DNA of 64,000 nucleotides. Origin: a virus. Taxonomy: Duplodnaviria; Heunggongvirae; Uroviricota; Caudoviricetes. The notes beneath the pieces are model-generated. The model was not told the origin of the DNA. It ran no database searches and was given only the letters and a program-made list of their open reading frames with translations. Shown here in pieces: positions 5,501 to 54,892 of this stretch; position 1 is the stretch's first letter; each line of letters begins with the position of its first letter. The stretch is from the IMG/VR virus record IMGVR_UViG_3300026549_001501, positions 35,348 through 99,347 of that record, one strand, 5' to 3'. A program made the position numbers and the translations under genes.

Positions 5501-5675
5501 TGCCCACGACAGGATTCGAACCTGTGACCGACGGATTAGCGCGTAAACTACGCTTCGAACGTAAACAGAGCTACATGCATGTACTCAACCCCGCTTTCTC
5601 CCATAATACGCGTGTTCGTCTCGGTGAACAATACCGTATGAAATCCGTTGCTCTATCCAACTGAGCTACGTGGGC
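5501..5675 (-). tRNA. tRNA-Arg(TCT) interrupted by a ~101-nt intervening sequence (about 5540..5640) inside the anticodon, after T34
   Basis: The 5' half (GCCCACG-TAGCTCAGTTGGATAGAGC-ACGGA-TTT) and 3' half (CTAA-TCCGT...ACAGGTTCGAATCCTGT-CGTGGGC) have 7/7 acceptor complementarity. The body closely resembles E. coli tRNA-Arg(UCU). The insert carries a GGGAGAAAG box and a 3'-proximal TACGTTCGAAGCGTA hairpin. Confidence 0.55.
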
Positions 5676-6799: not shown

Positions 6800-6980
6800 T
6801 GTGTTGTTTTCTTTTTAAAAATTCACAAAATAGCATCGTTGCGGCGAATTTAGTTTTTTTCTTTGCGGCTTTGAACTTATTTTTATCAATTGTTCTTTCA
6901 CGATGCTCTTCCAATTTCTCAAATAACCGTATCATAGTAATAATTTATGAACATTCTATTCAAATATACTAAAAAAATGC

Positions 6981-9972: not shown

Positions 9973-10820
9973 AATAAGTTATTATAAAAAGTCAAAAACT
10001 CGTTTATCTTTTCCCGCATTTTCTGTCGTCCCGCATCGTTATTTATTGTATTCCATTCAATTCGATAAATTGTGTACCCATGTTCTCTAAGGAAACAATC
10101 TCTTTCGGCGTCATGCGTTTGTCTACGTTTATGCTGTCTACCGTCAATTTCTAAATCTATCTTCTTCCCGTTTCTTTCAATTAAAAAATCAAGAAAGTAC
10201 TTTTTTGTTGAAAAATCCTCTTTTATAAAAGGTATTTTATTGTTTATTAAAACTTTTTCCCAAAATATCTCCGGGTATGAGTGAATGTTTCTTGTTTGCC
10301 ATCCGGAAAACGTCCCTTCTTTTATCCTTTCGTATGCCTTCTCTCTAATTTTATTTTTTACTTCTTCACTGTTATGTGCACATTGTTGACAACAATACTG
10401 GGCATTCTTATTTACTGAGGTAAATACTTTTCCGCAATGTTTGCAAACTATCTCATACTCTTTTTTACCAACTTGTCCATTCTTCAGTAATGAATGTTGT
10501 TGCAACGCCTCAGAAATCTTTTGCTTTGTCTCTTCTGATAAAGTTCTCTTTCGGTTGTTGTATTTAGCAGCACAAGATGAACTACAAAATTTTCTATTCC
10601 CGTGTATTACCTTACCGCATTGAAGGCAGCGCTTCTCTTTGTTTTGTTGTATTATATTTACAATATCAATATTGTACTCACGAGAGCAGTATTCAATTAT
10701 TTTCTTTTGTACGTTACCATTTGTGTATTTTACACCATAAATGATATTAGCGCATTCAGTAAATGTCTTACACTTCAAAAGTTCGTCTAGTTTTGTTTTA
10801 TTTTCCATAAAAATTGCCAT
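9969..10820 (-). CDS. homing-endonuclease-like protein: Zn-finger modules plus C-terminal Vsr-like (DUF559, PD-(D/E)xK) nuclease domain
   Basis: KFCSSSCAAKYNN modules as in 7550..8332. The C-terminus (FLDFLIERNGKKIDLEIDGRQH...DAERDCFLREHGYTIYRIEW) matches the Vsr/DUF559 pattern. Confidence 0.6.
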   Translation of the reverse strand: MAIFMENKTKLDELLKCKTFTECANIIYGVKYTNGNVQKKIIEYCSREYNIDIVNIIQQNKEKRCLQCGKVIHGNRKFCSSSCAAKYNNRKRTLSEETKQKISEALQQHSLLKNGQVGKKEYEIVCKHCGKVFTSVNKNAQYCCQQCAHNSEEVKNKIREKAYERIKEGTFSGWQTRNIHSYPEIFWEKVLINNKIPFIKEDFSTKKYFLDFLIERNGKKIDLEIDGRQHKRRQTHDAERDCFLREHGYTIYRIEWNTINNDAGRQKMREKINEFLTFYNNLL

Positions 10821-10875
10821 ATACTATAAATATAGCAATAAATCGAAAAATGTCAAGTCGAACCAAGTTTTTTTG

Positions 10876-11029
10876 TCGGGGTGACAGGACTCGGACCTGC
10901 GGCCTGATGGTCGAGCGACACGTAAGATTCGAACTTACGAAACTTCCAATATTGTGTCGCTTCACCAATTTCTCAGCCATTGGTTAACTGTAACCAAACC
11001 ACCCGCTCTACCAACTGAGCTACACCCCG
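10876..11029 (-). tRNA. tRNA (probably Pro(TGG); Glu(CTC) not excluded) interrupted by a ~81-nt insert in the anticodon loop
   Basis: 5' half CGGGGTG-TAGCTCAGTTGGTAGAGC-G-GGTGG. 3' half CCATC-AGGCC-GCAGGTCCGAGTCCTGT-CACCCCG-A. Acceptor 7/7. The insert contains hairpin TTGGTTA/TAACCAA and a T-loop-like hairpin CGTAAG-TTCGAAT-CTTACG. Confidence 0.5.
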
Positions 11030-11173
11030 ATATGTGGACTCGCTTTTTGGTTTTGTATAGCGATATCTACTATTACGTATTCCAAATGTTTTACCGCGTC
11101 GAGTCCGCACGCGAACCGATATTTTAAGTGCTCGGTATACAGTTTCGACCATCCTGCTTCCATTACACTTTTG

Positions 11174-11295
11174 CGCAACCGTTGGGCGTCGAACCCAAAG
11201 CCTTCTGTAGTACTTTTGCCATTAAGCTGTTAGCAAAAGCAGATGGTATCGCGCTCACCGCGACGGGAGCTACCCGTAAACCAATGTTCAGTTGC
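11174..11295 (-). ncRNA. tRNA-like structured RNA element, copy 1 of 2 (homolog at 56835..56953)
   Basis: A closing 7-bp helix GCAACTG/CGGTTGC plus a T-arm-like hairpin TTGGG-TTCGACG-CCCAA. It is about 75% identical to the plus-strand copy, with compensatory changes in both helices. Confidence 0.45.
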
Positions 11296-11476
11296 GTTTT
11301 CTTCTACCAAGCAATTTCTTGCCCGTTTACCTTTAATTTATCACATTTACCCCGCCTGAGCCTTGTGTGAAAAATTTTTTTCATTTTCTTCCTGAATTTT
11401 AGCCATTGCTTTCCTTTGCTTCCGGTAAATTCTTCAGGATACTCTTTTAATGAATACATAAATTTTAATGTTTTGC

Positions 11477-11745
11477 GGAGAGGGAGGGATTCGAACCCCC
11501 GGGCCCGTGAAGGCCAACGGTTTTCCTTGCTACATCGCTTTCACATTGTAGTCTGGACTTTCTCTTCGTCCGTTCTGGACGTCTCCTGTAAAGTCTCTAC
11601 ACACTGTCTTTAAACATTGGCTCGGTATTACCATCAGCATTACATGTTAAGGCTTCACCGAATTAGGGAGATTCTACTTTTATCATTCCTGATAAAGCAC
11701 TCGAATTAACAAGACCGCCGCAATCGACCACTCTGCCACCTCTCC
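11477..11745 (-). tRNA. tRNA-Ser(TGA) containing a 184-nt group I intron (11527..11710) between U34 and G35
   Basis: The exons give a class II tRNA (GGAGAGG-TG-GCAGAGTGGTCGATTGC...GCGGT-CTT|GAAA-ACCGT, long variable arm, T-arm). The intron carries ACCGAGCCAA and GTGTAGAGACT, which match 9 of 9 and 11 of 11 nt of my recollection of the Azoarcus tRNA-Ile group I intron. The 5' exon ends in U and the intron ends in G. Confidence 0.6.
11527..11710 (-). other. compact group I intron (IC3-like) in tRNA-Ser(TGA)
   Basis: See the tRNA entry above. The P7-region motif GUGUAGAGACU and the CCGAGCCAA motif are shared with the 599-nt intron in tRNA-Leu(TAA) at 54927..55525. Confidence 0.55.
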
Positions 11746-11938
11746 ATATATTTCAACAACGGTTATCGGATTTCCGTAGTCACCGATATTTGGAAACCTC
11801 TCGTAGTTACATATTGACGAGCCTTACCCGTGACCATTTCCTTATCCAATTTTCACACCCTTCTCCGTCATCCATTTTCAGACAGATATGCTATAGGCGT
11901 CCCATCTTGGCCGTTGTATTTTTCAAAGAACGTTTTTG

Positions 11939-12020: not shown

Positions 12021-12077
12021 TTTTAAAGAGATTTTTGCAAATATACAGATTTTGATCAAAATTTACAATTTTTTTTG

Positions 12078-12422: not shown

Positions 12423-12496
12423 TGGGCAAGAGAGGATTTGAACCTCTGACCCCCGCCTTATCAGGGCGGTGCTCTGACCAACTGAGCTACTTGCCC
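12423..12496 (-). tRNA. tRNA-Ile(GAT)
   Basis: GGGCAAG-TA-GCTCAGTTGGTCAGAGC-A-CCGCC-CTGATAA-GGCGG...AGAGGTTCAAATCCTCT-CTTGCCC-A. Confidence 0.8.
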
Positions 12497-12779
12497 ATAT
12501 CATATCACTCAATGTGTTATTACACCAAATCCGCTTTGCGCACAATCTTAAATTCACGGGTGGCAGTTCCGACGCAATCGATCCCTCAGCCACACGTATT
12601 AACGAATTTCCATTACAGTCCATACCATTGAAAGGCTTTCTAAGGATGTATAGGTTTTAATGTGGTGCCTTCACTGATGTTCCTTAGTTTTCTCCTTTCG
12701 GCTTCAGGCTAATATGGGTTTTTTGTAAACTCTTTAACCGATGGCTACTTCCAAGCCCACGGTTTGAGCGATATATATT

Positions 12780-12801
12780 TCAATGAACTTTTACAAATAT
12801 A
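12780..12801 (-). promoter_or_regulatory. repeated minus-strand promoter module, copy 1 (TATATTTG -7 box followed by conserved AAAAGTTCATTGA)
   Basis: The reverse complement reads TATATATTTGTAAAAGTTCATTGA, which fits the Bacteroidetes -7 consensus TAnnTTTG. The same module recurs at 15207, 16236 and 19728. Confidence 0.45.
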
Positions 12802-12811
12802 TAAATTTTGA

Positions 12812-13108
12812 TCAGCGTTCCAAATATTTCTCAATATTCTCTTCCGTCATCTCCTCTGATTTGGAAGTATAATATTCAAATGCTTCTTGAAGGAGTTCCT
12901 TGAAAAGCTCGAAATCCATCCATGCCATTTTATACATAGGCGTGGGGTTTCCGTACATATCCTTTGCCTCATCGTCGTAACGTTCAAGATGACGGCGGAA
13001 AATTGGCTCATATCGGGTATCGTTGAGATAGCCACAAACGAAATACCAAATGTTCGACGGAACGAACTTGTCTTTAATCTCTTTCATAATATTTCCTCCT
13101 TTTTGCAA
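12812..13108 (-). CDS. hypothetical protein, 98 aa
   Basis: Compact ORF between tRNA blocks. No motif. Confidence 0.45.
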   Translation of the reverse strand: MQKGGNIMKEIKDKFVPSNIWYFVCGYLNDTRYEPIFRRHLERYDDEAKDMYGNPTPMYKMAWMDFELFKELLQEAFEYYTSKSEEMTEENIEKYLER

Positions 13109-13145
13109 AGATAGGAATAAAAAATATAATTTCCAAATTTTATTT

Positions 13146-13218
13146 TGCAGGAGTGAAAGGATTTGGACCCTTACCGGACGAGTTTGGAGTTCGCCATGCT
13201 AACCGTTACACCACACTC
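13146..13218 (-). tRNA. tRNA-Trp(CCA)-like with unusual 9-nt anticodon loop
   Basis: Acceptor GGGAGTG/CACTCCT (one G-U pair), T-arm AAGGG-TCCAAAT-CCTTT, anticodon stem GGCGA/TCGTC closing the loop ACTCCAAAC. Confidence 0.5.
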
Positions 13219-13288
13219 CCGTATGTTGCTTTCTAAATTAGTATGTCGCCACCAATAGTCCATAATTTAATTCTTTATTTTAGCCAAG

Positions 13289-13374
13289 CGGAGAGCAGTG
13301 GGATCGAACCACATCCGAAAATATGGACGCACAACTTAGCAGGTTGCCGCTGTCACCGTTCAGCATTACTCTCC
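13289..13374 (-). tRNA. tRNA-Ser(GCT)
   Basis: Class II tRNA. Acceptor GGAGAGT/GCTCTCC, anticodon stem GCAAC/GTTGT, loop CTGCTAA, long variable arm. Confidence 0.65.
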
Positions 13375-14148
13375 TTTATAATAAAAATTTTTCCAATCTT
13401 TATATTCTTTTTCTATACTTAAGCTTCGTAAGAAATCATAAGAATAAAGTTCTTTTTTTGTGTGTAAAATTCTATGATGATTTGGACACACAACTATTAA
13501 ATTTCCATTTTCATCACTGCCTCCATCTTTTTTGGGTACAATGTGATGCACATCGCAAGTTGATTCATTCCAACCACAAATAGCACATTTACAATTTGCT
13601 TTTTTTAAAATTTTTATCATGGTTGTTTTTGGCAGTTCCAAAATTGATTCAACCTTATCAATATATTTTCTACCTATGCTTTTTTTACATTTCTTACAAA
13701 GGCAATTTCTTCCTTCTTTTACTTTCCTTCTAGAAAAAAATTCTTCTCCACAGTTCTCACAAATGTAGCGATATAGAACCTTTTCTCTTGGATTACTCTT
13801 GTTAAATTCTTTAAGGGATTTAGACGTCTTTTCTCTATGCGCAACTGTAATTACACGTTCTTTATTATTGAACTTTGCAGCGCAGCTTTTTGAACAAAAT
13901 TTATCTTGCCCTTTTTTTAACTTTTTTCCGCAGCAAGTGCAAAACTTAGAAGGATGTTGCCTCTCTTTGTATACTGAAAAATCAAACCCTACAAGTTCTC
14001 CAACTTTCTTTAGAATCTTATTATGCTCAGTATTATCAGATACACCAAAATACTCAAAGATTTGTTTCTTACTCTTGAAAGAGTCAAAAAGCTCAAAGTA
14101 TTTTTTTATATCTTCTTTACTGTTTATTTCAATATTAAATTTTTTCAT
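13366..14148 (-). CDS. HNH homing endonuclease with Zn-finger modules
   Basis: KFCSKSCAAKFNN-type module. C-terminal HNH motif CDVHHIVPKKDGGSDENGNLIVVCPNHH. Confidence 0.7.
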   Translation of the reverse strand: MKKFNIEINSKEDIKKYFELFDSFKSKKQIFEYFGVSDNTEHNKILKKVGELVGFDFSVYKERQHPSKFCTCCGKKLKKGQDKFCSKSCAAKFNNKERVITVAHREKTSKSLKEFNKSNPREKVLYRYICENCGEEFFSRRKVKEGRNCLCKKCKKSIGRKYIDKVESILELPKTTMIKILKKANCKCAICGWNESTCDVHHIVPKKDGGSDENGNLIVVCPNHHRILHTKKELYSYDFLRSLSIEKEYKDWKNFYYKGE

Positions 14149-14213
14149 TGTTTTACCCTTTTCTAATAAATATAAGAAAAGGTGGAAAAGTAAAGGTTTA
14201 AACTTGAAAAAAG

Positions 14214-14302
14214 TGGGAGAGAGTGGATTCGAACCACCAATGTTTACCCTGTGGGAACGGATTTACAGTCCGTTACGACACCACCATCGTCGCTGCTCTC
14301 CC
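14214..14302 (-). tRNA. tRNA-Tyr(GTA)
   Basis: Class II tRNA. Acceptor GGGAGAG/CTCTCCC, anticodon loop CTGTAAA, long variable arm, T-loop TTCGAAT. Confidence 0.7.
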
Positions 14303-14718
14303 ATAATCTCAGTCTATCCTGAGTGTCACCGTACGATTTTTTTAACTTAACGAGCGCAGGAGTCCCGGTGAAACCTGCTCAGATTTAAGGCACTTAACTG
14401 TAGGATGGACTCTCACCATCGTCTCCCGGTAAAATCCAGGGCTTCTCTCTCTTAAAGCTTCTACAATGCCTTTTTGTACCGTATGTTGGAATCGAACCAA
14501 CTTCCTCTCCCTGCCCCGGGAGCGAGTTTTGTGTCTCCGCAGACTTGCAATCTGCAAAATAAGCCGTGTTGCAAATTAACTTATTCCCGAATGCAGTATC
14601 CACTTCTGTGCGTCTCCAACACTCTCATACGGCGACAAGTCAGCGTGTATGCATCACCTTCTGACGTTGTGGGGCAAGTTTATATTAACCTATCGCGTAG
14701 GCAACTTCGCCTGCCTTG

Positions 14719-14790
14719 TGGACCGTAGGGGACTCGAACCCCTCCTATAGGCTTGCAAAGCCCACGTGCTACCACTATCACTAACGGCCC
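14719..14790 (-). tRNA. tRNA-Ala(TGC)
   Basis: Acceptor GGGCCGT/ACGGTCC including G3-U70, anticodon stem TGGGC/GCCTA, loop TTTGCAA. Confidence 0.75.
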
Positions 14791-14797
14791 AATTAAG

Positions 14798-15202
14798 TGG
14801 AGATGACGCGACTCGAACGCGTGTCTTTCAATGTGAAAAAATGCTTTCTACATGCTTATTCACTGTTAGTCAATTTTAAACGGTACGGTAGCGAAGAACC
14901 TTATCCATTCTACATCCATTTTGGAATCTTATTCTTTGGACAAATGGAAATCCTCAGAAAGTACCTCAGTGTCGATGATATCCGTATTGACGAACCCACC
15001 TCGGTTCAGAAATCCGTCACGGATAATGGCCCTCCCGCTGCCTTGGCGGAAATGGGTTAAGCAAATCTACTCTGTAGATTAAGCAGCCATTCTGAAAGTG
15101 TTGTTGCCAACTATTGTTTGGAAACTGAGATCAAAGGGCAAATTTCCGACGCCCTGCATGCTTGCACTCTCCCTTCAATGAAGTCAAAGCCAAAACATCC
15201 CC
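14798..15202 (-). ncRNA. ssrA: tmRNA (ssrA), phage-encoded. Predicted tag peptide (A)GNNTFRMAA
   Basis: The 5' end (GGGGATGTTTTGGCTTTGAC) parallels E. coli GGGGCTGATTCTGGATTCGAC. The 3' tRNA-like end is GACACGCGTTCGAGTCGCGTCATCTCC-A. The acceptor helix has a G3-U70 pair (alanine identity). Internal AAUAGUU|GGC AAC AAC ACU UUC AGA AUG GCU GCU UAA mirrors the E. coli AAUAGUC|GCA resume context and ends in -AA plus a stop. It sits immediately downstream of a TATATTTG promoter. Confidence 0.7.
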
Positions 15203-15206
15203 ATTT

Positions 15207-15229
15207 TCAATGAACTTTTGCAAATATAT
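15207..15229 (-). promoter_or_regulatory. repeated minus-strand promoter module, copy 2 (drives tmRNA and the downstream tRNAs)
   Basis: -7 box TATATTTG, with a -33 TTTG (AAATTTGGAT) about 20 nt upstream on the minus strand. Confidence 0.5.
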
Positions 15230-15262
15230 GGATTATATTTTAATAATCCAAATTTTTCTTTG

Positions 15263-15335
15263 TGGAGCCGATGGGAATTGAACCCACCACAGTCTGCTTG
15301 CAAGGCAATCTCGCCACCTTGGATCATGCGACCCC
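15263..15335 (-). tRNA. tRNA-like, Ala(TGC)-type anticodon loop but weak D-arm (possible pseudo or atypical tRNA)
   Basis: Acceptor GGGGTCG/CGGCTCC. The T-arm is good (GTGGG-TTCAATT-CCCAT). Anticodon loop CTTGCAA with a 4-bp stem. The D-stem pairs poorly. Confidence 0.4.
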
Positions 15336-15348
15336 ATATATTTCAATC

Positions 15349-15419
15349 TTTTGTGCTCCCGTCGGGAATCGGACCCGAAGCCGCGGATTAAGAGTCCGCT
15401 AGTCTACCATTAGCCTACA
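15349..15419 (-). tRNA. tRNA-Lys(CTT)
   Basis: Acceptor GCTCTTG/CGGGAGC, anticodon stem GCGGA/TCCGC, loop CTCTTAA. Confidence 0.7.
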
Positions 15420-15427
15420 AGAGCTTT

Positions 15428-15498
15428 TCCTGTGCTCCCGACGGGGCTCGAACCCGGATCCGACGGTTAAAGGCCGCCTAGTCTACCATTGACCTACA
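15428..15498 (-). tRNA. tRNA-Lys(TTT)-like (C33 in the anticodon loop CCTTTAA)
   Basis: Paralog of the preceding tRNA (same acceptor and D-arm). Anticodon stem GGCGG/CCGTC. Confidence 0.5.
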
Positions 15499-15506
15499 AG
15501 AGCAAT

Positions 15507-15578
15507 CCAAGTGCTCCCTGAAGGATTCGAACCCTCACTAAAACATCCGTAGTGTTTCGTGCTTTCCATTACACCAAG
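15507..15578 (-). tRNA. tRNA-Arg(ACG)
   Basis: Acceptor GCTCCCT/AGGGAGC, anticodon stem AAACA/TGTTT, loop CTACGGA. Confidence 0.75.
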
Positions 15579-15585
15579 GGAGCAT

Positions 15586-15658
15586 TTCGGTGGCCCCGGC
15601 GGAACTCGAATCCGCGACCCCCTCATTAAAAGTGAGGTGCTCTGCCAACTGAGCTACA
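15586..15658 (-). tRNA. tRNA-Lys(TTT)
   Basis: GGCCTTG-TAGCTCAGTTGGCAGAGC-A-CCTCA-CTTTTAA-TGAGG. The loop is identical to E. coli tRNA-Lys(UUU). Confidence 0.8.
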
Positions 15659-15763
15659 AGGCCATGTTGTATTCCTACCCATCTGCCCCGAGTCAGTCGG
15701 TTAGCAGACGTTTATATCCGTTTTCGTATTTGCTTTCGTTTTATCATAACTTTAAATCTTTTG

Positions 15764-15836
15764 CGGGGCGGGGTGGATTCGAACCACCGACGCCGGGCTC
15801 TTCAGGCCCGCGCTCTACCTACTGAGCTACCGCCCC
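15764..15836 (-). tRNA. tRNA-Phe(GAA)
   Basis: GGGGCGG-TAGCTCAGTAGGTAGAGC-G-CGGGC-CTGAAGA-GCCCG...GGTGGTTCGAATCCACC-CCGCCCC-G. Confidence 0.8.
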
Positions 15837-15856
15837 AATTAATATTTCAAATTTCG

Positions 15857-15930
15857 AGTCGAGAATCGGATTCGAACCGATGAATGCTAGTTTTGCAGAC
15901 TAGCGTGTTAGACCACTTCACCACCTCGAC
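15857..15930 (-). tRNA. tRNA-Cys(GCA)
   Basis: Acceptor GTCGAGG/TCTCGAC, anticodon stem CTAGT/ACTAG, loop CTGCAAA, T-loop TTCGAAT. Confidence 0.75.
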
Positions 15931-15965
15931 ATTTATCACTATTTAATTTTTGGGAAAGCCTTTGT

Positions 15966-16005
15966 CCAAAAAAAACCTCCGAATGTCTTTTGGACTTGGA
16001 GGTTG
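15966..16005 (-). terminator. intrinsic terminator-like hairpin (minus strand) upstream of the tRNA block
   Basis: Minus-strand sequence AACCTCC-(17 nt)-GGAGGTT followed by TTTTTTTT. Confidence 0.4.
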
Positions 16006-16235
16006 GAGAGTTTGATATATGTTGTACCGCTTAGCGGTTGTGGGTTCGGCTTTACCCTATTATATCTTATTATTCCTACCTCCATACGACGGCCATCCAA
16101 AGCGGGCTTTGAGAAGCGCCTTGGGTGCAATACTTGAAAAATAATATGAACACAATGCCGTCATGTCTCTGACTTTTTAATTGATCAAAAAATTCTATTC
16201 GTAAATAAATATACGAAACTTTCAAAAAGTTTCAA

Positions 16236-16258
16236 TATCACTTTGCAAATATACGGAA
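16236..16258 (-). promoter_or_regulatory. repeated minus-strand promoter module, copy 3 (variant)
   Basis: TTCAATATCACTTTGCAAATATA is the same module with three substitutions. The -7 box is TATATTTG. Confidence 0.35.
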
Positions 16259-16321
16259 AATTTTTTAAAAAAACAAATTTCATTAAACAAATAAAGCCGT
16301 AGGATTTTCCCTTCGGCTTTT

Positions 16322-16576
16322 TTACTGCTCCTTTACATATAGTTTACAGCAACATTTATTTTTTAATCTGTAATTTGAACAAGCGCATTTCTTGTCTTCC
16401 GAATCATTATCGCAAGGGCAGTTTCCGTCATTGCGGTTTATTGCCTTAATAATTCCGTTCACAATTTTCTCATTTGGATTTAGTATCCACCCCTTTTTAC
16501 AATTCTTTTTCGCTTCTTCTATTGTCATAATATATTTGTTAACGTCTATATACGAAAAAAACGCGCCTTTCGGCAC
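16322..16576 (-). CDS. small Cys-rich protein, 84 aa
   Basis: The C-terminus (GNCPCDNDSEDKKCACSNYRLKNKCCCK) is likely metal-binding. Confidence 0.4.
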   Translation of the reverse strand: MPKGAFFSYIDVNKYIMTIEEAKKNCKKGWILNPNEKIVNGIIKAINRNDGNCPCDNDSEDKKCACSNYRLKNKCCCKLYVKEQ

Positions 16577-18231
16577 GTTTCCTCTTTGTGGTTAGAAGAA
16601 ATTTCGCAACGTCTTCTACCTGTGAGTCGGGCTGAGTCGTGACCCTCTCGCCACACCGTTTTCGTCCCTTTCAGGCCTAGAACACATCCTTGTTTCCAAA
16701 GATAGGTGGGATGCAGACGGATTCTAAGTTCCGCAACTACTACGTGATGTTATATAAAGTACTTCGTTCTGCCCTTGCTCCTTGCGAGATACGGAAGCGC
16801 TACCCTCCTACAAGTTGCATACTTGTTTCGTTTCTACGATTTCCTTGCGGTACTCTCGCAGCCACCATATTACAGGTGGATAACTGCATTGTTGCATCAC
16901 GTGCGCAACACTTTTGCTGAATTTTTTGATTTACACATAACCATAAAAACGTGCTTTTCATCGTTTTGCGCAAATACACCGAGTTTGGAAGACGTGGTTG
17001 CGCTTTATACCATTCCACCTTTTGAGTGGAGTAGGCATATACGCCTTCCTGCTTTCACCTGCCAAGGCTACTAACTATACAACCTATCCTTCCTACCATT
17101 TCTGAGCCGCGTTGCCACACGCAGCCGTTGCATTGGCTACGACATAGGAAGAAGATCTTCTTCATAGACTCCATAAGACTGGCAATCTTTTTTAGTCTAT
17201 GCATACCCTATATGTCGGAGTTACCTCCCAAGACGACGCCAGTGCTGCGCCGCCGCGCCCAACTATCGGCTCTGCCCGAGCCTACAAACCGTTGAAGCGT
17301 TTAGAGTATGGCTTTCACGTGAAGTGAAATACCCTCCGTAGAGGAGTAAATCACCGCCGATGGATGCATTTGCATACAGAGCCTTCGACTTTCCCAGCTT
17401 ATGGATTCACTGGTTATTCTGTTGACGGGAAGCCCGCCATCTCTTCTTTTCAAAGAACTTCGCAGCGCTTGCGTCCGCTGCTGGACTGCTTGCCGCTTTT
17501 TGCGGCGTGACGGCTGACAACCGTCGTGGAAATTCGCCGCCCAAAGGAGTCGCGCCGTTTTCACGCGTCGGGGGCGGCACGCCCGGCTTGTCACACCGGG
17601 GAGTGAGTTGGCTTTGGGGGAGCCGGGGAGCCAAGGGCAGCGGTTTTCGCTGTCGGGGCTGCCGGCATATTCATATTCGGACTGCCAACCAAAGTCCGCT
17701 GCGGCCGTGCCAAGGGGCGCTAACTAATTCCGAGTTTTCGGGTAGATGGCCCGGGCATTTTTTGCCGCAAATCCTGCCAAGGTGTGAAGTCGTTCGAATT
17801 TTCGAAAATATCTGTTCACGAAACCGAGGCGATTTATAAATACACCGTTGTTTCCAAAAGTGCACTTATTTTTCTAAAATTTCTCAAAGAACTTTCACTT
17901 TTTTGCTCGACGCAGACTTGCTGTCTCAATCGAACAATGCAAATATACACCTTTTTTTCTTAAAAACCAAATTTTTTTGATTTTTTTTTTCGAAAAAATG
18001 ATCAAATTTTAACCACTCGCGTCCCACCGTCCTGTTGCTTTCTTTCTCATTGGTATAACGCCCAAAACATTTCCCCGCCGGGATTTGTTTCTTAAATAGG
18101 CTCCCACATCGGAAGTACCCGTGTACTGTTCGCTTACGCCGTTCCAGCGCCACCGACAGGGACAGATACACTGTTGCTCATACGCCCAAGCCTTGTCCGT
18201 TGATTTGATCAAATATTTCAAAGATGTATGG

Positions 18232-18962: not shown

Positions 18963-19138
18963 TGGGAACGCACAGATTCGAACTGTGGACCCCCTGCTTG
19001 TGCTGGTAAATTACGCTTCGGACGTAAATTGATGCAACAATTGATTTGCAATTCACTTTCTCCCGTTTTACCAAATATCCGTCACAGTGGATAATTCTGT
19101 AGAAGGCAGGTGCTCTAAACCAGCTGAGCTACGTTCCC
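18963..19138 (-). tRNA. tRNA-Val (probably CAC anticodon) interrupted by a ~101-nt insert in the anticodon loop
   Basis: 5' half GGGAACG-TAGCTCAGCTGGTTTAGAGC-A-CCTGC-CT. 3' half CACAA-GCAGG-GGGTC-CACAGTTCGAATCTGTG-CGTTCCC-A. Acceptor 7/7. The insert carries ACGGGAGAAAG and TACGTCCGAAGCGTA followed by 9 nt, homologous to the 5540..5640 insert. Confidence 0.55.
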
Positions 19139-19727
19139 TTTTTAATCACCTAAGACTAACGCGCTTGTGTGTCATTCGCAATGCACTAGGTGTATAACTT
19201 TTTTTATACGTGCAGTTTCTAACCCCTTTTGCAACCCCTTTTCGCTACTTTACGTGTCCTATATTTGAGTTAATGACGCCATCCTACGAATACTCATTGC
19301 AACATTTAACCGTGGCTTCTTCACATTGTCTCAATCTGTGAAGTTCCCTCCTACGGTGAGGCCGTTAGTCGGATTTGACTTTTCTCTATATATTTTCAAT
19401 GAACTTTTTCAACTTGTGTGGAATGGGGCATCTTCGCGCCACACACGCCGTTATTACGCTCCCCATCAGCGCTCGTACCGTCCCTGCACGCGGCACGCTT
19501 ATTCCGTAACATAGTCGGCTTGATTTCTCAAGAACCAAATGTAACCACCATTGAATTTCCGACACAGGTGAAATCAATATCTCAAGACTGCCCTTAGATT
19601 TAAGCTTACCTACGCACAGTGAGGTACTAAGGCGGTTCGTTCAGGTTGCCCGATATTATCTAGAATTAAGCGGGTCCTCGTGCGTGTCAAACGGGCATGG
19701 ACAGACAGCCTTCCACAGTCTTAATTT

Positions 19728-19751
19728 TCAATGAACTTTTTGCAAATATAA
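19728..19751 (-). promoter_or_regulatory. repeated minus-strand promoter module, copy 4
   Basis: The reverse complement reads TATTATATTTGCAAAAAGTTCATTGAA. The -33-like AAATTTGGATG lies 20 nt upstream. Confidence 0.45.
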
Positions 19752-19781: not shown

Positions 19782-19934
19782 GTACTCCCGCTGTGAATCG
19801 AACACAGATTTAGGGTTTAGTCGGTATTTTACGCTTCGGACGTATACAGTTCTGCATTCTCCCATATTACCGAAGCCCGTTTCGGTGGGCTACTCCGTAT
19901 GGAAACCCTCGTTCTATCCGTTGAACTACGGAAG
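19782..19934 (-). tRNA. tRNA-Arg (probably CCT anticodon) interrupted by a ~80-nt insert
   Basis: 5' half GCTTCCG-TA-GTTCAACGGATAGAAC-G-AGGGT-TTC. 3' half CTAA-ACCCT-AAAT-CTGTGTTCGATTCACAG-CGGGAGT-A. The insert begins CATACGG, as in the 5540..5640 insert, and contains TATGGGAGAATG and TACGTCCGAAGCGTA followed by 9 nt. Confidence 0.5.
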
Positions 19935-19936
19935 CA

Positions 19937-24113: not shown

Positions 24114-24935
24114 TTGCAAATGAAAAAGATACTGAATAAAAACGTTGATATTTTCATATATGGAGTGAAGGCATTCACTCCTCTTGTGTCTAATCCTGTC
24201 TATAAGATATTGGTTAATTCCCACGATAAGGAGGAAGATTTTCATACAACGCTTCCTATCTACAGGGACTACGAAGGACTGAACATATCAGACAACAACC
24301 TTGTATACAATGAATACACGGGGTTGTTTTGGATCTGGAACAATTGGGAATTGAAGGACTATATCGGCGTTAACCACTATCGTAGATATTACGACTTCCT
24401 TGACAACGTTCCCAATATCAACGAACTGTTCAAGGGGCATAAGATTATACTTAATAATAAGTTCCCGCTTCAGATTGAAGGAAAACCAGCCAACAACAGG
24501 GATTTCTATGCTGAGTGGCATAATGTGAAGGATTTTGACTTAATGGGTAAAATCGTTAAGGAACTATATCCTGAATATGCGGATGGTTGGGACAAGATGG
24601 CTGAATCCACACACATTTATCCAAGTTCTATCTTTATCATGCCGAAGCGTCTTTTCAACGACTATATGCAGTATATCTTCGACGTAACTGAAGAATTTAA
24701 TTATAGAATGGGTTGTCAAACGAACGACGACTATATCAAGTACGTTGAAGCGCATAAGGACGAATATGTGAGGGAGAATCATAAGTATTATGACGTGAAG
24801 ATGCAGGCGCGTATGGTAGGATATCTTATCGAGCGTTGTTTATGCGCGTTCCTTATGAGTGGTGGAAATAAGTCACTTGAGGCGAACTCTGTTCAGTTAC
24901 CTTGGCACGTTTATGACGTTAAGTATAACGTTTAA
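24114..24935 (+). CDS. DUF4422-like (capsule/LPS glycosyltransferase-associated) protein
   Basis: The YNEYTGLFWIWNNWE motif resembles the DUF4422 signature (NEYTGLYWxWKN) found in polysaccharide gene clusters. Confidence 0.45.
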   Translation: MQMKKILNKNVDIFIYGVKAFTPLVSNPVYKILVNSHDKEEDFHTTLPIYRDYEGLNISDNNLVYNEYTGLFWIWNNWELKDYIGVNHYRRYYDFLDNVPNINELFKGHKIILNNKFPLQIEGKPANNRDFYAEWHNVKDFDLMGKIVKELYPEYADGWDKMAESTHIYPSSIFIMPKRLFNDYMQYIFDVTEEFNYRMGCQTNDDYIKYVEAHKDEYVRENHKYYDVKMQARMVGYLIERCLCAFLMSGGNKSLEANSVQLPWHVYDVKYNV

Positions 24936-29353: not shown

Positions 29354-30415
29354 ATGGCACAGAAAGATTATTATTCAATACTCGGTGTAGACAGAAACGC
29401 GTCCGCAGACGATATTAAAAAGGCATATAAGAAATTATGCCTCAAGTATCATCCGGATAGGTGGGCGAACGCAACAGACGCTGAAAAGAAAGAAGCCGAG
29501 GATAAATTCAAGGAGATTAATGAGGCGAACAGTGTTCTCTCCGACCCGAAGAAAAAGCAAAGCTACGACTTGTTCGGAAACGCTGATATGGGTACTAGTG
29601 CCGATGATGAATTTGATCCATTTGAAAGGTTAAGAAGAAGCAGTGGGTGGAATCCATTTGGAGCACCACAGAAAAGAAAGGGCGCTGACGTTCAGGCTGA
29701 GGTTACAATATCAATGAAGGAAGCTTTCAGCGGTGTCGGAAAGAACGTAACGGTGAATAAACCGAGGCCTTGCCACTACTGTAATGGAACAGGCGCCGCC
29801 GACGGTAAGGAGCACAAGTGCCCTCATTGTAATGGAACGGGCGTACATAGGCAGGTTCAGAGGTTCGGAAACGCTACATTTGAATCAACTCGTACGTGTC
29901 CGTACTGTGGTGGTACAGGTAAGGATATTAAGGAACCTTGCCAACACTGCCACGGAACAGGTGTTGAATATGCGCCAGAGACAAACTACGTAGATATCCC
30001 TGCAGGCATTTTTGACGGGGCAACACTCGTAGTGAAGGGTGCAGGCTGTGAATCAGAAGAATATGGCGGCCCTAATGGAGATTTGTTCGTCAAGGTTAAC
30101 GTTATCTCAGAGGATGGATATTCACGCGAAGACGCGAACATTGTATACACGCTCAAGGTTAATTTGATCGATGCGTGGGTTGGATGTAAGAAAACTGTTC
30201 TTGCCCTTGACGGCACGAGTGTCGGCGTTCAGATTCCACCGCTTACAAAGTCAGGCAAAAATTTCGTAGTTCGCGGAAGAGGATTCATTGTAAACACTCC
30301 ATTTGGGCAGGATAGAGGTGATTTCGTTATCCGTATTGAATATGATATTCCAAGCAAACCGTTAACAGAAAAACAGAAAAAAGCTCTTGAGGAGTTTTAT
30401 AATTTGGAGAAGTAA
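29354..30415 (+). CDS. dnaJ: DnaJ-family co-chaperone
   Basis: J-domain with the HPD motif (YHPDR), four CxxCxGxG zinc-finger repeats and a C-terminal domain. Confidence 0.8.
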
Positions 30416-30459
30416 AAATTTTCCTCTACATTTGCACAATAAAACAAACACAGATTGTA

Positions 30460-31146
30460 ATGAATAACAAATTTGAAAGAGATTTTACCTTGTTCGCAAG
30501 AGATCACAAGGTTCCTACCACAACACTTGAAGGATATACCAGAATGATGGACTCCTACATTGAGCCTACCATTATCGAGGAACGTCGGCTTAATGCTACG
30601 CAGATTAGCGTTTTCAGCCGTCTGTTTATGGAGCGTATTCTTTTTGTCGGCACCGCCATTGACAGCGACGTAGCTAATATCGTCAACTCTCAGCTTCTGT
30701 ACCTTCAGACTGAGAACCCGAGCAAGCCCGTCACTATGTATATCAACTCCCCCGGCGGTTCTGTTTATGACGGAATGAGTATCTATGACGTCGCCAAGTA
30801 TATTTCCTGTCCTATTGGGACTACTTGCTGTGGCACCGCCGCTTCTATGGCAGCAGTTCTGCTTGCCTCAGGTGACAAGGGACTTCGTAACGCCCTTCCT
30901 CACAGTCAGATTATGCTTCACGCTCCTTCTACCGCCACCGGGCGTACCACTGCCCCTGACTTCAGGATTGCAGCAAAGGAGATGGAGAAGTGCGAGGAAA
31001 TGCTTTACCGCGTGCTTGCAGACGACATGGGTAAGGATATCGACTATATTCGTACCATTTGCGACCGCGACCACTGGCTCACCCCCGAGGAAGCCGTCCG
31101 CGAAGGTGTGATTGACTCCGTTATCCGTAAAAATCAGGAAGACTAA
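30460..31146 (+). CDS. clpP: ATP-dependent Clp protease proteolytic subunit ClpP
   Basis: INSPGGSVYDGMSIYD, GTAASMAAVLL (catalytic Ser), MLHAPS (His). Confidence 0.8.
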   Translation: MNNKFERDFTLFARDHKVPTTTLEGYTRMMDSYIEPTIIEERRLNATQISVFSRLFMERILFVGTAIDSDVANIVNSQLLYLQTENPSKPVTMYINSPGGSVYDGMSIYDVAKYISCPIGTTCCGTAASMAAVLLASGDKGLRNALPHSQIMLHAPSTATGRTTAPDFRIAAKEMEKCEEMLYRVLADDMGKDIDYIRTICDRDHWLTPEEAVREGVIDSVIRKNQED

Positions 31147-31426: not shown

Positions 31427-32608
31427 ATGATTAATCTTACTAAGAAAAAAGTTACTGCCATTATTTTTGGCGTGTTTACACTTGTCGTTCTTTGCCTTAT
31501 GGGTAGCGTCGCCGAGGACGTTAAAAACGAGCAGATTGTCGTCAACCAGTATCCCATTACGGGTAACATGGCTTATTGGACTGATGCGGGTTTAAAGTGG
31601 CAGTGGTTCGGACGTACCACCAAGTACTACAAGACTCAGCAGTTCTGGTTCGGAGGTAAAGACGTTGAGGGAGAATCTCACGGAACGCCTATCAAGGTTA
31701 TTTTCAACGACGCTTCCGTTGGCTACATTTACGGCTCTCTCCGCGTTGTTCTTCCTACCGATGTTGAGCACCTAAAGCTTATTCAGACAGCATATACAGG
31801 TATGGATAGACTTATGAATGACTTGGTTGCGCAGAATGTTGTTAAGGTTATCTACGCATCGGGCCCTCTTATGTCAGCATTCGAATCTTATGCTGAGAAG
31901 AAAAACGATATGGTGTTTTACATTACCGATCAGCTTACTAACGGAGTTTATAAGACAGCTATTCGTGAAGAAGAGTCTGTTGATACATTTACCGGTGAGG
32001 TTAAGAAGGTGAAGGTTGCTTCTCTTGTTGCAAATGAGAATGCGCCTAATGGGTATGTCCGTTCCGAGAAGTCTCCATTTACAAGCTACGGCGTAACAAT
32101 CGACCAGGTTTCTATTACCGAAATTACCTATGATGAGAAAGTGAACCAACAAATTCAAACCCAGCAACAGGCTAATATGTCCATTCAGACTAAGAAAGCC
32201 GAGGCTCTCGCTGCACAGCAGGACGCTATCAAGGCTGAGGCTGAGGGTAAGGCTGCCGCCGCAAAGGCTAAGTGGGAACAGGAACGCGTTAAGGCTACCG
32301 AAGTTACCAAGGCTGAGCAGGAGCGTGAAGTTGCTCGTCTCGCCGCTGAGAAGGCTGAATTTGATAAGAAGCGTATTATTGCCGAGGGTGAGGCTGAGGC
32401 TGCCGCTAATCGCGCACTTGTTGCTGCAGGACTTACTCCACTTGAACGAGCCAAAATTGATAAGGAAACAAAAATTGGTGTGGCTGAAGCATTAGCTAAG
32501 ACTAAATGGCCTACTGTTGTTATGGGCGGAAATTCAGGAAATAATACGGCTATGGACGTAATTGCCCTCAAACAAATGACTGACTTGGTTGATAAACTGA
32601 GTAAGTAG
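31427..32608 (+). CDS. SPFH/band-7 domain membrane protein
   Basis: N-terminal transmembrane segment, a central band-7-like region and a long Ala/Glu/Lys coiled coil, as in HflK/C and prohibitin-type proteins. Confidence 0.55.
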   Translation: MINLTKKKVTAIIFGVFTLVVLCLMGSVAEDVKNEQIVVNQYPITGNMAYWTDAGLKWQWFGRTTKYYKTQQFWFGGKDVEGESHGTPIKVIFNDASVGYIYGSLRVVLPTDVEHLKLIQTAYTGMDRLMNDLVAQNVVKVIYASGPLMSAFESYAEKKNDMVFYITDQLTNGVYKTAIREEESVDTFTGEVKKVKVASLVANENAPNGYVRSEKSPFTSYGVTIDQVSITEITYDEKVNQQIQTQQQANMSIQTKKAEALAAQQDAIKAEAEGKAAAAKAKWEQERVKATEVTKAEQEREVARLAAEKAEFDKKRIIAEGEAEAAANRALVAAGLTPLERAKIDKETKIGVAEALAKTKWPTVVMGGNSGNNTAMDVIALKQMTDLVDKLSK

Positions 32609-33722: not shown

Positions 33723-34482
33723 GGCAGAAATTGTATTAATTCCCGATATACATGGTAGAACTTTTTGGAAAGATGCTGTGAAAGGAAGGGAAAATAATCC
33801 TATAATTTTTTGTGGTGACTACATGGACCCGTATGACGATGAATGCATTGGATACAACAAGGCAAAAGAAAACTTCAAGGAGATAATCGAATTCGCAAAC
33901 TCTCGTTATAACGTCACTTTATTATTAGGAAATCATGACTGTCATTATCTTTGCGGAATAGAACACTGTTCAAGATATGATTTCTTCCACGTTCCTGAAA
34001 TAAGAAAAGTGTTCAAATCATATAAGGGAACATTTAAAATCGCTACAGAGAGGACCATTGACGGTAAACGTTTCATATTCTCACACGCAGGGCTTTCAAG
34101 GACGCAGTTCAATAATCACGAATTACTTTTCAGAGGGATAGATTGGGATAAGATAAACGTTGTCGATTGGGTAAATAATGCTTGGGAAGTAAAGGACGGG
34201 CATTTTATATCTATATTGGACGATATATCGTTCAGACGTGGTGGATTTGATAACTTAGGCTCCGTTATTTGGGCAGATATATTGGACCATTATGTAGATG
34301 GAAAGGGAAAGAATCTGTTCGGAGATTATCAAATTTTCGGGCATACTCAGTTGGTAAAGGATCCGATAATCTTTGATAAATTTGCTTGTGTGGACTGTAG
34401 AAGGGCTTTTATTCTCAATGATAAGGGAAAGATATGTGAACTTGACGGAAAAGAAATTGAATTAACAAAAGAAGGAAAATGA
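33715..34482 (+). CDS. calcineurin-like metallophosphoesterase (Ser/Thr phosphatase-like)
   Basis: Motifs DIHG, GDYMD, GNHD and SHAG are present. Confidence 0.6.
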   Translation: MNEAEIVLIPDIHGRTFWKDAVKGRENNPIIFCGDYMDPYDDECIGYNKAKENFKEIIEFANSRYNVTLLLGNHDCHYLCGIEHCSRYDFFHVPEIRKVFKSYKGTFKIATERTIDGKRFIFSHAGLSRTQFNNHELLFRGIDWDKINVVDWVNNAWEVKDGHFISILDDISFRRGGFDNLGSVIWADILDHYVDGKGKNLFGDYQIFGHTQLVKDPIIFDKFACVDCRRAFILNDKGKICELDGKEIELTKEGK

Positions 34483-35402
34483 ATATATTAGTAACAGGCG
34501 CTAATGGGCAACTTGCGCAATGCCTTAAACGACTAGTGTACGCACACGGAAACGGACACCCTGATTCATACGTTGGAGAAAAGGACTATTGGATATTTGC
34601 CGATAGAGAAACACTCGATATCACAAAATTGGATGATGTCGTAGATTTCATAAAGAAAAATTACATCAATGTTATCGTCAATTGCGCCGCCTATACCAAT
34701 GTTGCTAAGGCAGAAGTAGATTACGATTCTGCTTATGCCGTAAATGTTTGTGGCTCAGAAAATCTTGCGTTTGCCTCTAAAGCAAACGGCGCGGGTCTTA
34801 TTCATATATCAACGGATTATGTTTTCGACGGAAAGAAAGGTTTACCTTATCTTGTTGATGACGCCACTAATCCGCTAAATGCATATGGAAAAAGTAAGTG
34901 TGATGGCGAAAAGGTAATTGTTCTGCAAGGAGGAAGATACTTAATTTTTAGAACTTCTTGGCTATATTCCCAGTACGGGAAGAACTTTGTGAAGACGATT
35001 GCCGGTAAATGTATAGGTGGTGAGCCCTGTACTGTTGTGAATGACCAATTCGGCTGCCCTACAAATGCTAATGATTTGGCAAGATTCATTTATAGGATTA
35101 TAACTGAGAATAACGCCGACAACAGGTACCTGAGCAAGAGTGGAATCTATCACTATTGCAATAGCGGAGAGGCTACATGGTACGACTTTGCACGTGCGAT
35201 TTATGATAAGATTGGAGACAAGGTTGATAAGGTTCAGCCAATGAAAACAACAAATTCAGGTGTTGAACGTCCAATGTATAGTGTAATGGATACGTCCCTT
35301 ACCTCAGAAATTTTCAATGAAGAATTTAAATCTTGGGAAGATTCACTATCCGAGGTTATTAACGAAATATTAACAGAAGTAATTAGTCTAATAAAGGCAT
35401 AA
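34479..35402 (+). CDS. rmlD: dTDP-4-dehydrorhamnose reductase
   Basis: MNILVTGANGQL Rossmann fold and the overall RmlD pattern (YTNVAKAE, STDYVFDG). Confidence 0.7.
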   Translation: MNILVTGANGQLAQCLKRLVYAHGNGHPDSYVGEKDYWIFADRETLDITKLDDVVDFIKKNYINVIVNCAAYTNVAKAEVDYDSAYAVNVCGSENLAFASKANGAGLIHISTDYVFDGKKGLPYLVDDATNPLNAYGKSKCDGEKVIVLQGGRYLIFRTSWLYSQYGKNFVKTIAGKCIGGEPCTVVNDQFGCPTNANDLARFIYRIITENNADNRYLSKSGIYHYCNSGEATWYDFARAIYDKIGDKVDKVQPMKTTNSGVERPMYSVMDTSLTSEIFNEEFKSWEDSLSEVINEILTEVISLIKA

Positions 35403-35514
35403 AAGGAATGTTTCTTTTTGGTGGTTTTTCTAAAAGATAAAACTAATTATTCTGATAAAAAATACTCAAACGACATAATAATAAATAAAGAAGAAATATT
35501 AACAGAAATTAGAA

Positions 35515-54867: not shown

Positions 54868-54892
54868 CAAAAATAAGTTCATTGAAAATATT

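Follow-up and report, generated by a model that had tools for sequence, protein, structure and literature searches.

A one-piece tmRNA gene, likely functional, in the stable-RNA island of a large uncultivated phage

On the minus strand of a 64,000-nt stretch of an IMG/VR virus record, which we refer to as the window, positions 14798..15202 resemble a bacterial ssrA gene. The locus raises the question of whether the carrier supplies its own RNA for trans-translation and, if it does, whether the peptide tag encoded by this RNA alters the fate of rescued proteins. A first-pass annotation had proposed a phage tmRNA with a non-canonical tag that could redirect or evade tagging for the host ClpXP protease. 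From the sequence evidence set out below, the locus is likely to be a functional one-piece tmRNA gene in the stable-RNA island of a large uncultivated Bacteroidales phage.

Sequence, ends and predicted fold of the tmRNA

Both ARAGORN and the Rfam covariance model RF00023 recognized a one-piece tmRNA (ssrA) gene of 405 nt up to the discriminator A (14798..15202, minus strand). The RF00023 match extended over the entire model (positions 1-374 of 374) and scored 119.7 bits (E 3.5e-46), as compared with a gathering score of 47 bits. ARAGORN placed the gene at 14797..15202(-), i.e., with one base more, and reported the tag GNNTFRMAA* with its coding part at nt 95-124, where nt 1 corresponds to window position 15202. 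The identification of the stretch as a tmRNA in the first-pass annotation is thus borne out by the two programs. The permuted (two-piece) tmRNA model, RF04321, was rejected, as its match at 15079-15307 scored 31.9 bits, short of the threshold of 47; this sub-threshold match stems from the tRNA-like element lying upstream, together with the 5' part of the tmRNA.

The 5' end of the tmRNA reads GGGGAUGUUUUGGCUUUGAC. Its first seven nucleotides, GGGGAUG (15196..15202, minus strand; nt 1-7), constitute the 5' strand of the acceptor stem and, by sequence and Rfam alignment, pair with CAUCUCC at 14799-14805. The resulting stem of 7 bp (nt 1-7 / 398-404) contains a G3·U402 pair, the equivalent of the G3·U70 alanine identity pair, and is followed by the discriminator A405. 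The T-arm (nt 381-397), with a 5-bp stem and a 7-nt loop of sequence UUCGAGU, occupies 14798..14822(-) together with the acceptor 3' strand CAUCUCC and the discriminator A. The gene does not encode the 3' CCA (...CUCCA|CUU), and neither does any of the 26 tRNA genes that were called in the window. In the place of an anticodon arm, the long helix H2, which links the tRNA-like domain to the remainder of the RNA, was aligned to the model with three non-standard pairs, and its inner 6 bp are GCAUGC/GCAUGU (nt 42-47 / 348-353).

Immediately upstream of the resume codon lies pseudoknot PK1 (15120..15155, minus strand; nt 48-83), which is supported by both pairing and covariation. Its stem 1 joins AGGGC to GCCCU (nt 48-52 / 64-68) and its stem 2 joins GGAAAUU to AGUUUCC (nt 56-62 / 77-83), with 12 of 12 pairs formed in the window tmRNA. 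In an alignment of 20 tmRNAs, 83% of the cells in PK1 were paired, as compared with 60% in shuffles and 36-42% with slid partners, and the covariation score of 0.625 (versus 0.205) was reached by none of 500 shuffles and by none of the slid controls. The tag reading frame (15079..15108, minus strand; nt 95-124), called by ARAGORN and in register with Bacteroidales tags, is preceded by the resume context AAACAAUAGUU (15109-15119; nt 84-94), which sits directly 5' of the resume codon GGC. The frame reads AAUAGUU|GGC AAC AAC ACU UUC AGA AUG GCU GCU UAA, with nine codons at nt 95-121 and the stop at nt 122-124. It has neither a start codon nor a Shine-Dalgarno sequence, and is flanked by the conserved A-rich ...UAGUN context ahead and by the in-frame stop behind. 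Overlapping the stop codon is a 7-bp hairpin, H5 (AAUCUAC-AGA-GUAGAUU; 15064..15080, minus strand; nt 123-139), which the Rfam alignment places within an insertion and which was found by folding the segment with RNAfold. A structured region of ~208 nt (14856..15063, minus strand) matches PK2-PK4 in the Rfam alignment, with local hairpins predicted; the PK2 stem aligns well, and the PK3 and PK4 stems contain three and four non-standard pairs, respectively.

The individual elements listed in the first-pass annotation, i.e., the 5' end, the 3' T-arm with CAUCUCC-A, the G3·U pair and a frame after AAUAGUU that encodes GNNTFRMAA and then UAA, were all present in the sequence, the last in agreement with ARAGORN. 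Its suggestion that the pseudoknots be folded was upheld as regards PK1, with complete pairing and a covariation score above that of every shuffle.

Transcription unit and neighbouring genes

The tmRNA is preceded by a Bacteroidota-type promoter, TTTG-N20-TATATTTG (15221..15252, minus strand), with 18 nt separating it from the mature 5' end. Sites of the form TTTG-N18-22-TAnnTTTG occur 18 times in the window, as compared with 2.19 expected, and their strand tracks the direction of the genes. The tmRNA promoter is one of these 18 sites and belongs to repeat families D2/D4, which have copies at 12022, 12778, 13099, 16230, 17924 and 19727; the repeated promoter named in the earlier proposal is therefore present upstream of the gene. 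Bacterial ssrA genes of Bacteroidales possess the same -7 box, TAnnTTTG, 13-15 nt upstream. Between the promoter and the tmRNA, the 18-nt leader contains the motif AGTTCATTGAAA (15205..15216, minus strand), of which there are nine sites in the window versus 0.92 expected. Bacterial contig L157 has this motif too, in the leader that precedes 16S rRNA in a Bacteroidales rRNA operon; the motif also resembles the consensus of boxA antitermination elements, a resemblance that we regard as a lead. The presence of an rRNA-leader-like motif behind the stable-RNA promoters of the phage is an observation in its own right.

The gene for tRNA-Ala(TGC), called by ARAGORN at 14718..14790(-), begins 6 nt downstream of the tmRNA, directly after it as had been claimed. 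No minus-strand terminators were found in 14000-16400, and hence none between the tmRNA and the tRNAs that follow it; because no terminator separates them, the tmRNA and tRNA-Ala are probably co-transcribed. Just upstream of the promoter there is a degenerate tRNA-like element (15260..15335, minus strand), whose acceptor stem has a G3·U pair and whose anticodon loop contains UGC. With the Rfam tmRNA model, this element is matched in the tRNA-like domain only (26.4 bits, E 2e-7), ARAGORN reports it at the 80% threshold only, and it can be aligned to tRNA-Ala.

A ClpP gene at 30460..31146(+), to which the first-pass annotation had also drawn attention, was recovered with Pfam CLP_protease (1e-59). 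The NCBIfam ClpP model NF011091 matched at 3.8e-70, a match that lies below that model's cutoff, and comparison with PDB ClpP chains (1e-48) aligned the motifs GTAASMAA, MLHAP and DRD, which hold the catalytic Ser, His and Asp. A functional link between the phage ClpP and the tag is possible. ClpX was not found in the window or its flanks, and no other unfoldase partner of ClpP was found in the window. Pfam searches of nearly all window ORFs ≥100 aa on the coding strand, and of the 10-kb flanks, gave no match to SmpB; they covered ~84 kb of a contig of at least 131 kb, belonging to a genome that may exceed 200 kb. A complete trans-translation system, i.e., smpB alongside the tmRNA, was not found within the ~84 kb examined, and for this reason we presume that SmpB would be supplied by the host.

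The carrier genome and its relation to other tmRNAs

The window forms part of ENA ERZ27252065 contig k141_631138 (131,114 bp), in which the tmRNA lies mid-contig. The same tmRNA with its upstream and downstream flanks was recovered at 100% identity in a Logan assembly (L125), and with its downstream flank at 99.99% over 8,230 nt in a JGI assembly (L123). It is located inside a tRNA gene array (26+ tRNAs in the gene content) on a phage-like contig, and not at a prophage/host junction. Other genes of the carrier encode an amidase endolysin, HNH endonucleases, RecD2, SSB, Tad2-like, YopX and TnpB proteins, DnaJ, DnaK and, as described above, ClpP, along with many ORFans. No GenBank phage matched the window by megablast, and blastn matches to GenBank phages were to tRNAs only and not to the tmRNA. 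An AAA ATPase gene and its four neighbours are syntenic with a 356-kb IMG/VR contig, with amino-acid identities of 45-63% for four of the five genes and 30% for the fifth; more distant relatives comprise viral IMG/VR contigs of 221-380 kb and GenBank 'uncultured phage' records of 462-595 kb. The related contigs of 356-380 kb are IMGVR_UViG_3300028887_000066 and ERZ28612963 scaffold_6. The ~84 kb examined yielded no capsid, terminase or other structural genes, so that the assignment to viruses rests on these relatives and on gene content, which together make it very probable that the carrier is a virus. By the same sequence comparisons, we describe it as an uncultivated phage related to huge phages of 221-595 kb. 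We infer a Bacteroidales bacterium as host, judging by the type of promoter, the leader motif held in common with an rRNA operon and the family to which the tag belongs.

Contig L123, in which DNA of bacterial appearance abuts the tmRNA, was also considered as a possible junction with a host ssrA gene. This was rejected, in that its left half derives from a Bacteroidales rRNA operon, of which it contains the promoter and leader, and is joined to the tmRNA locus through only ~5 nt of microhomology. L123 is either chimeric or the product of a rare recombination, and offers no evidence for a host ssrA like that of the phage.

To place the gene among other tmRNAs, IMG/VR was scanned with 15-mers and the matches were analyzed with ARAGORN, which yielded 35 tmRNAs. 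Most of the 26 with Bacteroidota-type tags had no tRNAs nearby, and these 26 are probably for the most part host ssrA genes at prophage edges. Five of the 35 (L013, L015, L099, L075 and L062) were situated in tRNA arrays on viral contigs of 117-236 kb and, in two of these five, the tmRNA was directly followed by a tRNA (Trp, Leu). Adjacency of tmRNA and tRNA therefore recurs, whereas adjacency to tRNA-Ala specifically does not. Huge phages are also known to carry tmRNAs, some of them together with SmpB (Al-Shayeb et al., 2020, PMC7162821). As in both of these groups, the window gene belongs to a large viral contig and is located within or next to a tRNA array. It further resembles the array-embedded tmRNAs in that their tags are host-phylum-like (GETTYALAA, GNYEYALAA) and their RF00023 scores similar (98-134 bits). 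However, array-embedded tmRNAs are at most 57% identical to it, and the SmpB of some huge phages has no counterpart in what we examined here. Across all of the tmRNAs recovered, identity to the window tmRNA was 45-57%; retention of the fold at this level suggests that the gene is maintained by selection.

Bacterial ssrA genes of Bacteroidales (MAG DAOSXZ010000057, with the tag GNNNYALAA, and a Porphyromonas sp. MAG, with GENNYALAA) are likewise one-piece. They share with the window gene the first 20 nt, the acceptor 3' strand, a TAnnTTTG box a few nucleotides upstream, and a tag of nine codons that starts with GGC (Gly) and ends in Ala-Ala. In contrast, overall identity is ~50%, the bacterial genes are chromosomal where that of the window is in a phage tRNA array, their RF00023 scores are higher (130-151 bits), and their tags have Asn/Ser-Tyr-Ala-Leu in the place of Thr-Phe-Arg-Met. 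The 5' 20-mer of the tmRNA occurred in six of 185,579 species genomes, belonging to unrelated phyla, and four of these six matches were tmRNAs. As all six diverge right after nt 20, no bacterial donor was identified. The exact 20-mer had no match in IMG/VR, a second 20-mer over PK1 and the resume region gave two chance matches without a tmRNA in JGI metagenomes, and no diverged close homologue of the tmRNA was found.

Among relatives of the carrier, those reached through the AAA ATPase (L117-L121) had flanks without tRNAs. A 91-aa array protein led to further relatives, which either lacked tRNAs (L142-L153, L156) or possessed arrays without a tmRNA (L154, L155). The latter two are the nearest relatives with tRNA arrays, and in both the interval from tRNA-Lys(ctt) to tRNA-Ser(gct) is devoid of a tmRNA, indicating that the gene is dispensable for the group and an accessory of this lineage.

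Phage tmRNAs as such are already established. They have been described in eight cluster C mycobacteriophages and in Bacillus phage G (Hudson et al., 2014, PMC4131195; PMC12484599), and 402 of 18,146 phage genomes were reported to contain a tmRNA, 133 of them unique (PMC9004378). The share of phage genomes with a tmRNA is put at 2.3%. Cluster C mycobacteriophages such as Bxz1 and Catera, as well as phage G, combine a complete tmRNA with a large genome and many tRNAs, as seen here; they nonetheless infect other host phyla and use other tag families (phage G: AKLNITNNELQVA), and their tmRNAs have no blastn similarity to that of the window. Marine phages such as Melnitz likewise have an RNA for trans-translation behind an early or host-type promoter, but theirs is a two-piece (permuted) tmRNA (PMC9004378); the window gene is one-piece and without a riboswitch. 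The gene described here is a divergent new phage tmRNA, whose tag is unique but typical of its family. It adds a well-anatomised example from what appears to be a Bacteroidales-infecting phage related to huge phages, although a tmRNA gene in itself is what a specialist would expect in such a genome.

The tag peptide, the predicted role of the tmRNA and alternatives

Nine-codon tags of the form G-x-x-x-[Y/F]-A-[L/M]-A-A were encoded by 26 of the 35 IMG/VR tmRNAs and by the two Bacteroidales bacterial tmRNAs. GNNTFRMAA departs from this pattern solely by having Arg for Ala at position 6, and Arg was found at that position in none of the 26. Endings in -MAA occur in other tags, i.e., GEYNYAMAA (L057) and ANDFTPARMAA (L075), Phe replaces Tyr elsewhere in GENNFALAA, and the first three codons, GGC AAC AAC, are those of the Bacteroidales MAG tmRNA with the tag GNNNYALAA. 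A back-translated pattern for GNNTFRMAA matched no IMG/VR contig, and a literature search for natural -YAMAA tags gave no useful match. The description of the tag as non-canonical was accordingly not sustained: but for Arg6 it fits the Bacteroidota pattern, its -MAA ending is a natural one, and its first three codons are those of a Bacteroidales bacterial tag.

In a screen of random C-terminal tags in E. coli, the terminal Ala-Ala was critical for degradation, the best-degraded motif was [L/F/Y/W]-[L/A/R]-L-A-A, and Arg at the position in question favoured proteolysis (PMC10862746). Replacement of Leu by Met, a conservative change, is all that separates FRMAA from this motif. Since the terminal Ala-Ala is kept and FRMAA lies so close to the best motif, the tag would be expected to act as a competent degron and not as a means of evasion, contrary to what had been proposed. 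The evidence therefore points to GNNTFRMAA as a mild, degron-competent variant of the Bacteroidota-type degradation tag, with the limit that degradation was measured in E. coli rather than with a Bacteroidota ClpX.

Based on these features, we propose that host RNA polymerase would use a strong, stable-RNA-type promoter to transcribe the tmRNA, probably together with tRNA-Ala. RNase P and 3' processing enzymes would trim the transcript, the CCA-adding enzyme would supply its CCA, and host AlaRS would charge it with alanine by means of the G3·U pair. Host SmpB would then bind the charged RNA and deliver it to ribosomes that stall during infection, whereupon translation would resume at GGC and append (A)GNNTFRMAA to the nascent chain. 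Tagged products would most likely pass to ClpXP-type proteases, and the phage ClpP may contribute. The likely benefit to the phage is that ribosomes would be kept free and truncated proteins recycled during destruction of host mRNA or under translation stress, in keeping with suggestions that ribosome availability is the gain from other phage tmRNAs (PMC7162821; PMC9004378). The combination of tmRNA, tRNAs, ClpP, DnaJ and DnaK suggests that the phage takes over ribosome rescue, protein turnover and decoding.

Three alternatives, each less well supported than this functional reading, were weighed against it. According to the first, the tmRNA would compete with that of the host and append a tag not recognized by host ClpXP, so that its products would escape degradation or be rerouted, perhaps to a phage protease. 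The absence of Arg6 from the 26 Bacteroidota-type tags, the substitution of Met for the usual Leu, the possession by the phage of its own ClpP, DnaJ and DnaK, and the recurrence of -RMAA in the viral tmRNA L075 all fit such a role. We nevertheless consider it unlikely, given that the critical Ala-Ala is retained, that an aromatic-Arg-hydrophobic-Ala-Ala ending is close to the best E. coli degron (PMC10862746), that other natural tags end in -MAA, and that the window encodes neither ClpX nor another detectable partner unfoldase for the phage ClpP. A related idea, that tuning has made the tag an exceptionally strong degron or one suited to the phage-encoded protease, we hold to be about equally doubtful. 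Were it true, FRMAA, with Arg where bacterial tags are not known to have it, would form, with the phage ClpP, DnaJ and DnaK, a quality-control and amino-acid-recycling circuit of the phage's own that acts on rescued products, and the recurrence of -RMAA in L075, a viral tmRNA unrelated to this one, would amount to convergence on a tuned-degron solution. The Arg6 variant in any case offers a simple way to ask whether tuning differs between the tags of phages and those of their hosts.

The second alternative is that the gene is a passenger, i.e., a copy of a host ssrA that was acquired, for example by recombination in the stable-RNA locus, and is now unused and decaying. The patchy occurrence of tmRNA among relatives, the degenerate tRNA-like relic adjoining the gene and the several non-standard pairs in PK3 and PK4 are consistent with this, and the hybrid L123 indicates that the locus can be joined to leader DNA of a bacterial stable RNA. 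Against it stand the full-length model match with every functionally critical part intact, a promoter of its own from the phage's repeated family, identity of at most 57% to the tmRNAs recovered, and the divergence beyond the first 20 nt of the six species genomes that share them. High divergence with a preserved fold argues for long residence and is not what neutral decay would give, and we rate this reading as rather less probable than a tag-altering function.

Lambda-immP22 hybrid phages are reported to require the charging of tmRNA and not its tag, a precedent for the third alternative, in which the RNA would serve as a sponge for host SmpB or simply free ribosomes, the tag being irrelevant to the phage. 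Although phage DS6A has tmRNA fragments that comprise only the tRNA-like domain (TLD) and that may act as inhibitors of tmRNA (PMC4131195), this is the least probable of the three, because a complete mRNA-like domain (resume context, open frame, stop codon and H5) and a tag with the phylum-typical pattern would be unexpected if the tRNA-like domain alone mattered.

Besides the tmRNA, the stable-RNA island contains a GOLLD-like RNA and, near the tmRNA, a family of structured introns of 81-105 nt inserted in tRNA anticodon loops. Some of these neighbours, including the GOLLD-like RNA, the tRNA introns, the tRNA-like element, the leader motif and the L123 hybrid, are arguably more unusual than the tmRNA itself.

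Degenerate and interrupted tRNA genes

Directly upstream of the tmRNA promoter, we identified a degenerate tRNA-like element (window positions 15260-15335, minus strand) whose acceptor stem contains the G3·U pair. Its T-arm is good and UGC lies within its anticodon loop, but its D-arm is poor. ARAGORN detected this element at the 80% threshold only, and the Rfam tmRNA model matched it in the tRNA-like domain only (26.4 bits). Given the G3·U stem of the element, alanine-type acceptor stems are present on both sides of the tmRNA. Two more T-arm and acceptor 3' ends, both belonging to the repeat family D1, were found on the minus strand at 14474-14499 and 11473-11498. No tRNA was called upstream of either end, and ARAGORN found nothing at these sites when run with its intron option. 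The D1 ends lie in spacers of 415 nt and ~900 nt and may represent further interrupted or degenerate tRNAs.

Insertions of 81-101 nt were found in the anticodon loops of four tRNA genes of the window, i.e., Met-cat, Arg-tct, Arg-cct and a fourth whose anticodon is ambiguous. These interrupted genes are located at 5501-5675, 10876-11029, 18963-19138 and 19783-19935, all on the minus strand. Three of the introns share the sequence blocks CCACYGNGACG, GGGAGAA and ACGTYCGAAGCGTA, as well as a common consensus fold in which 9 of 26 pairs were compensatory. The same intron family interrupts a tRNA-Arg(tct) gene on an unrelated IMG/VR contig (L093, 1352-1532). At this length, the insertions are too short to be group I introns, and a comparison with Rfam gave no match at E <= 1. 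In Lak megaphages, introns described as 'enigmatic' have been reported in tRNA genes (10.1101/356790).

A 3' CCA is encoded in none of the 26 tRNAs called by ARAGORN in the window, nor in the tmRNA. On related phage contigs (L148-L153), we found a gene of the PolyA_pol/CCA-adding family together with RlaP, several RNA ligases and a kinase-like HD/AAA_33 gene. Thg1 and HD/AAA_33 genes are also present on the contig to which the window belongs. Together, these genes constitute a tRNA maturation and repair toolkit.

GOLLD-like RNA and a leader motif of stable-RNA genes

A distant GOLLD-like large non-coding RNA was located at 16629-17049 on the minus strand, with tRNA-Cys on one side and tRNA-Asp on the other. 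The Rfam model RF02032 was matched over its entire length (1-416), including its conserved loops, with 68.3 bits and an E value of 4e-17, a score below the gathering cutoff of 150. The surrounding GC-rich stretch (~16600-17920) is devoid of convincing ORFs, and a copy of the repeated promoter is present upstream of the RNA at 17924-17974.

The motif AGTTCATTGAAA occurs nine times in the window vs. 0.92 occurrences expected. Copies were found at 12778-12789, 15205-15216, 19394-19405 and 19726-19737 on the minus strand and at 54876-54887 on the plus strand, and further window copies carry one mismatch. In three copies, the motif directly follows the -7 promoter box of stable-RNA genes. It is also present in a Bacteroidales bacterium (L157, ~12450-12465), in the leader that separates the promoter from 16S rRNA. 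The motif appears boxA-like, which would suggest that the tRNA, tmRNA and GOLLD-like transcripts of the phage bear a copy of the antitermination signal of the host's rRNA.

A hybrid contig and other phage genes

The 17-kb contig L123 (JGI 3300039431 Ga0395993_000510) consists of 8.2 kb of Bacteroidales chromosome (58% GC) fused at position 8237 to phage sequence. Its phage part begins 6 nt before the tmRNA and runs from window position 15208 down to 6979, and comparison with L157 showed that the bacterial part terminates in an rRNA-operon promoter and leader. Microhomology at the joint is limited to ~5 nt. L123 may be a chimera that arose during assembly or library preparation, or else a rare recombinant. 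The contig L124 likewise has its right-hand break at 6979, where a terminator hairpin is located.

The phage has a set of chaperone and protease genes. On the plus strand at 29354-31146, a full-length DnaJ gene (TIGR02349, 7.5e-94) is immediately 5' of ClpP; an SPFH/Band 7 protein is encoded next after ClpP (31427-32608). An HSP70/DnaK gene lies ~2.4 kb past the low-coordinate end of the window (12430-14271 of the flank L134). Matches to RmlD (8e-88) and an RmlA-like nucleotidyl transferase (6e-68) at 34479-36417 (plus strand) show that the phage has dTDP-sugar synthesis genes, and a DUF4422 match was found at 24114-24935. At the window start, a Tad2-like protein, of an anti-Thoeris family by Pfam name, is encoded on the minus strand (341-955). 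Finally, a TnpB/OrfB_IS605 gene ~0.8 kb past the high-coordinate end (10757-11872 of the flank L138) is missing in some variants of the same region.
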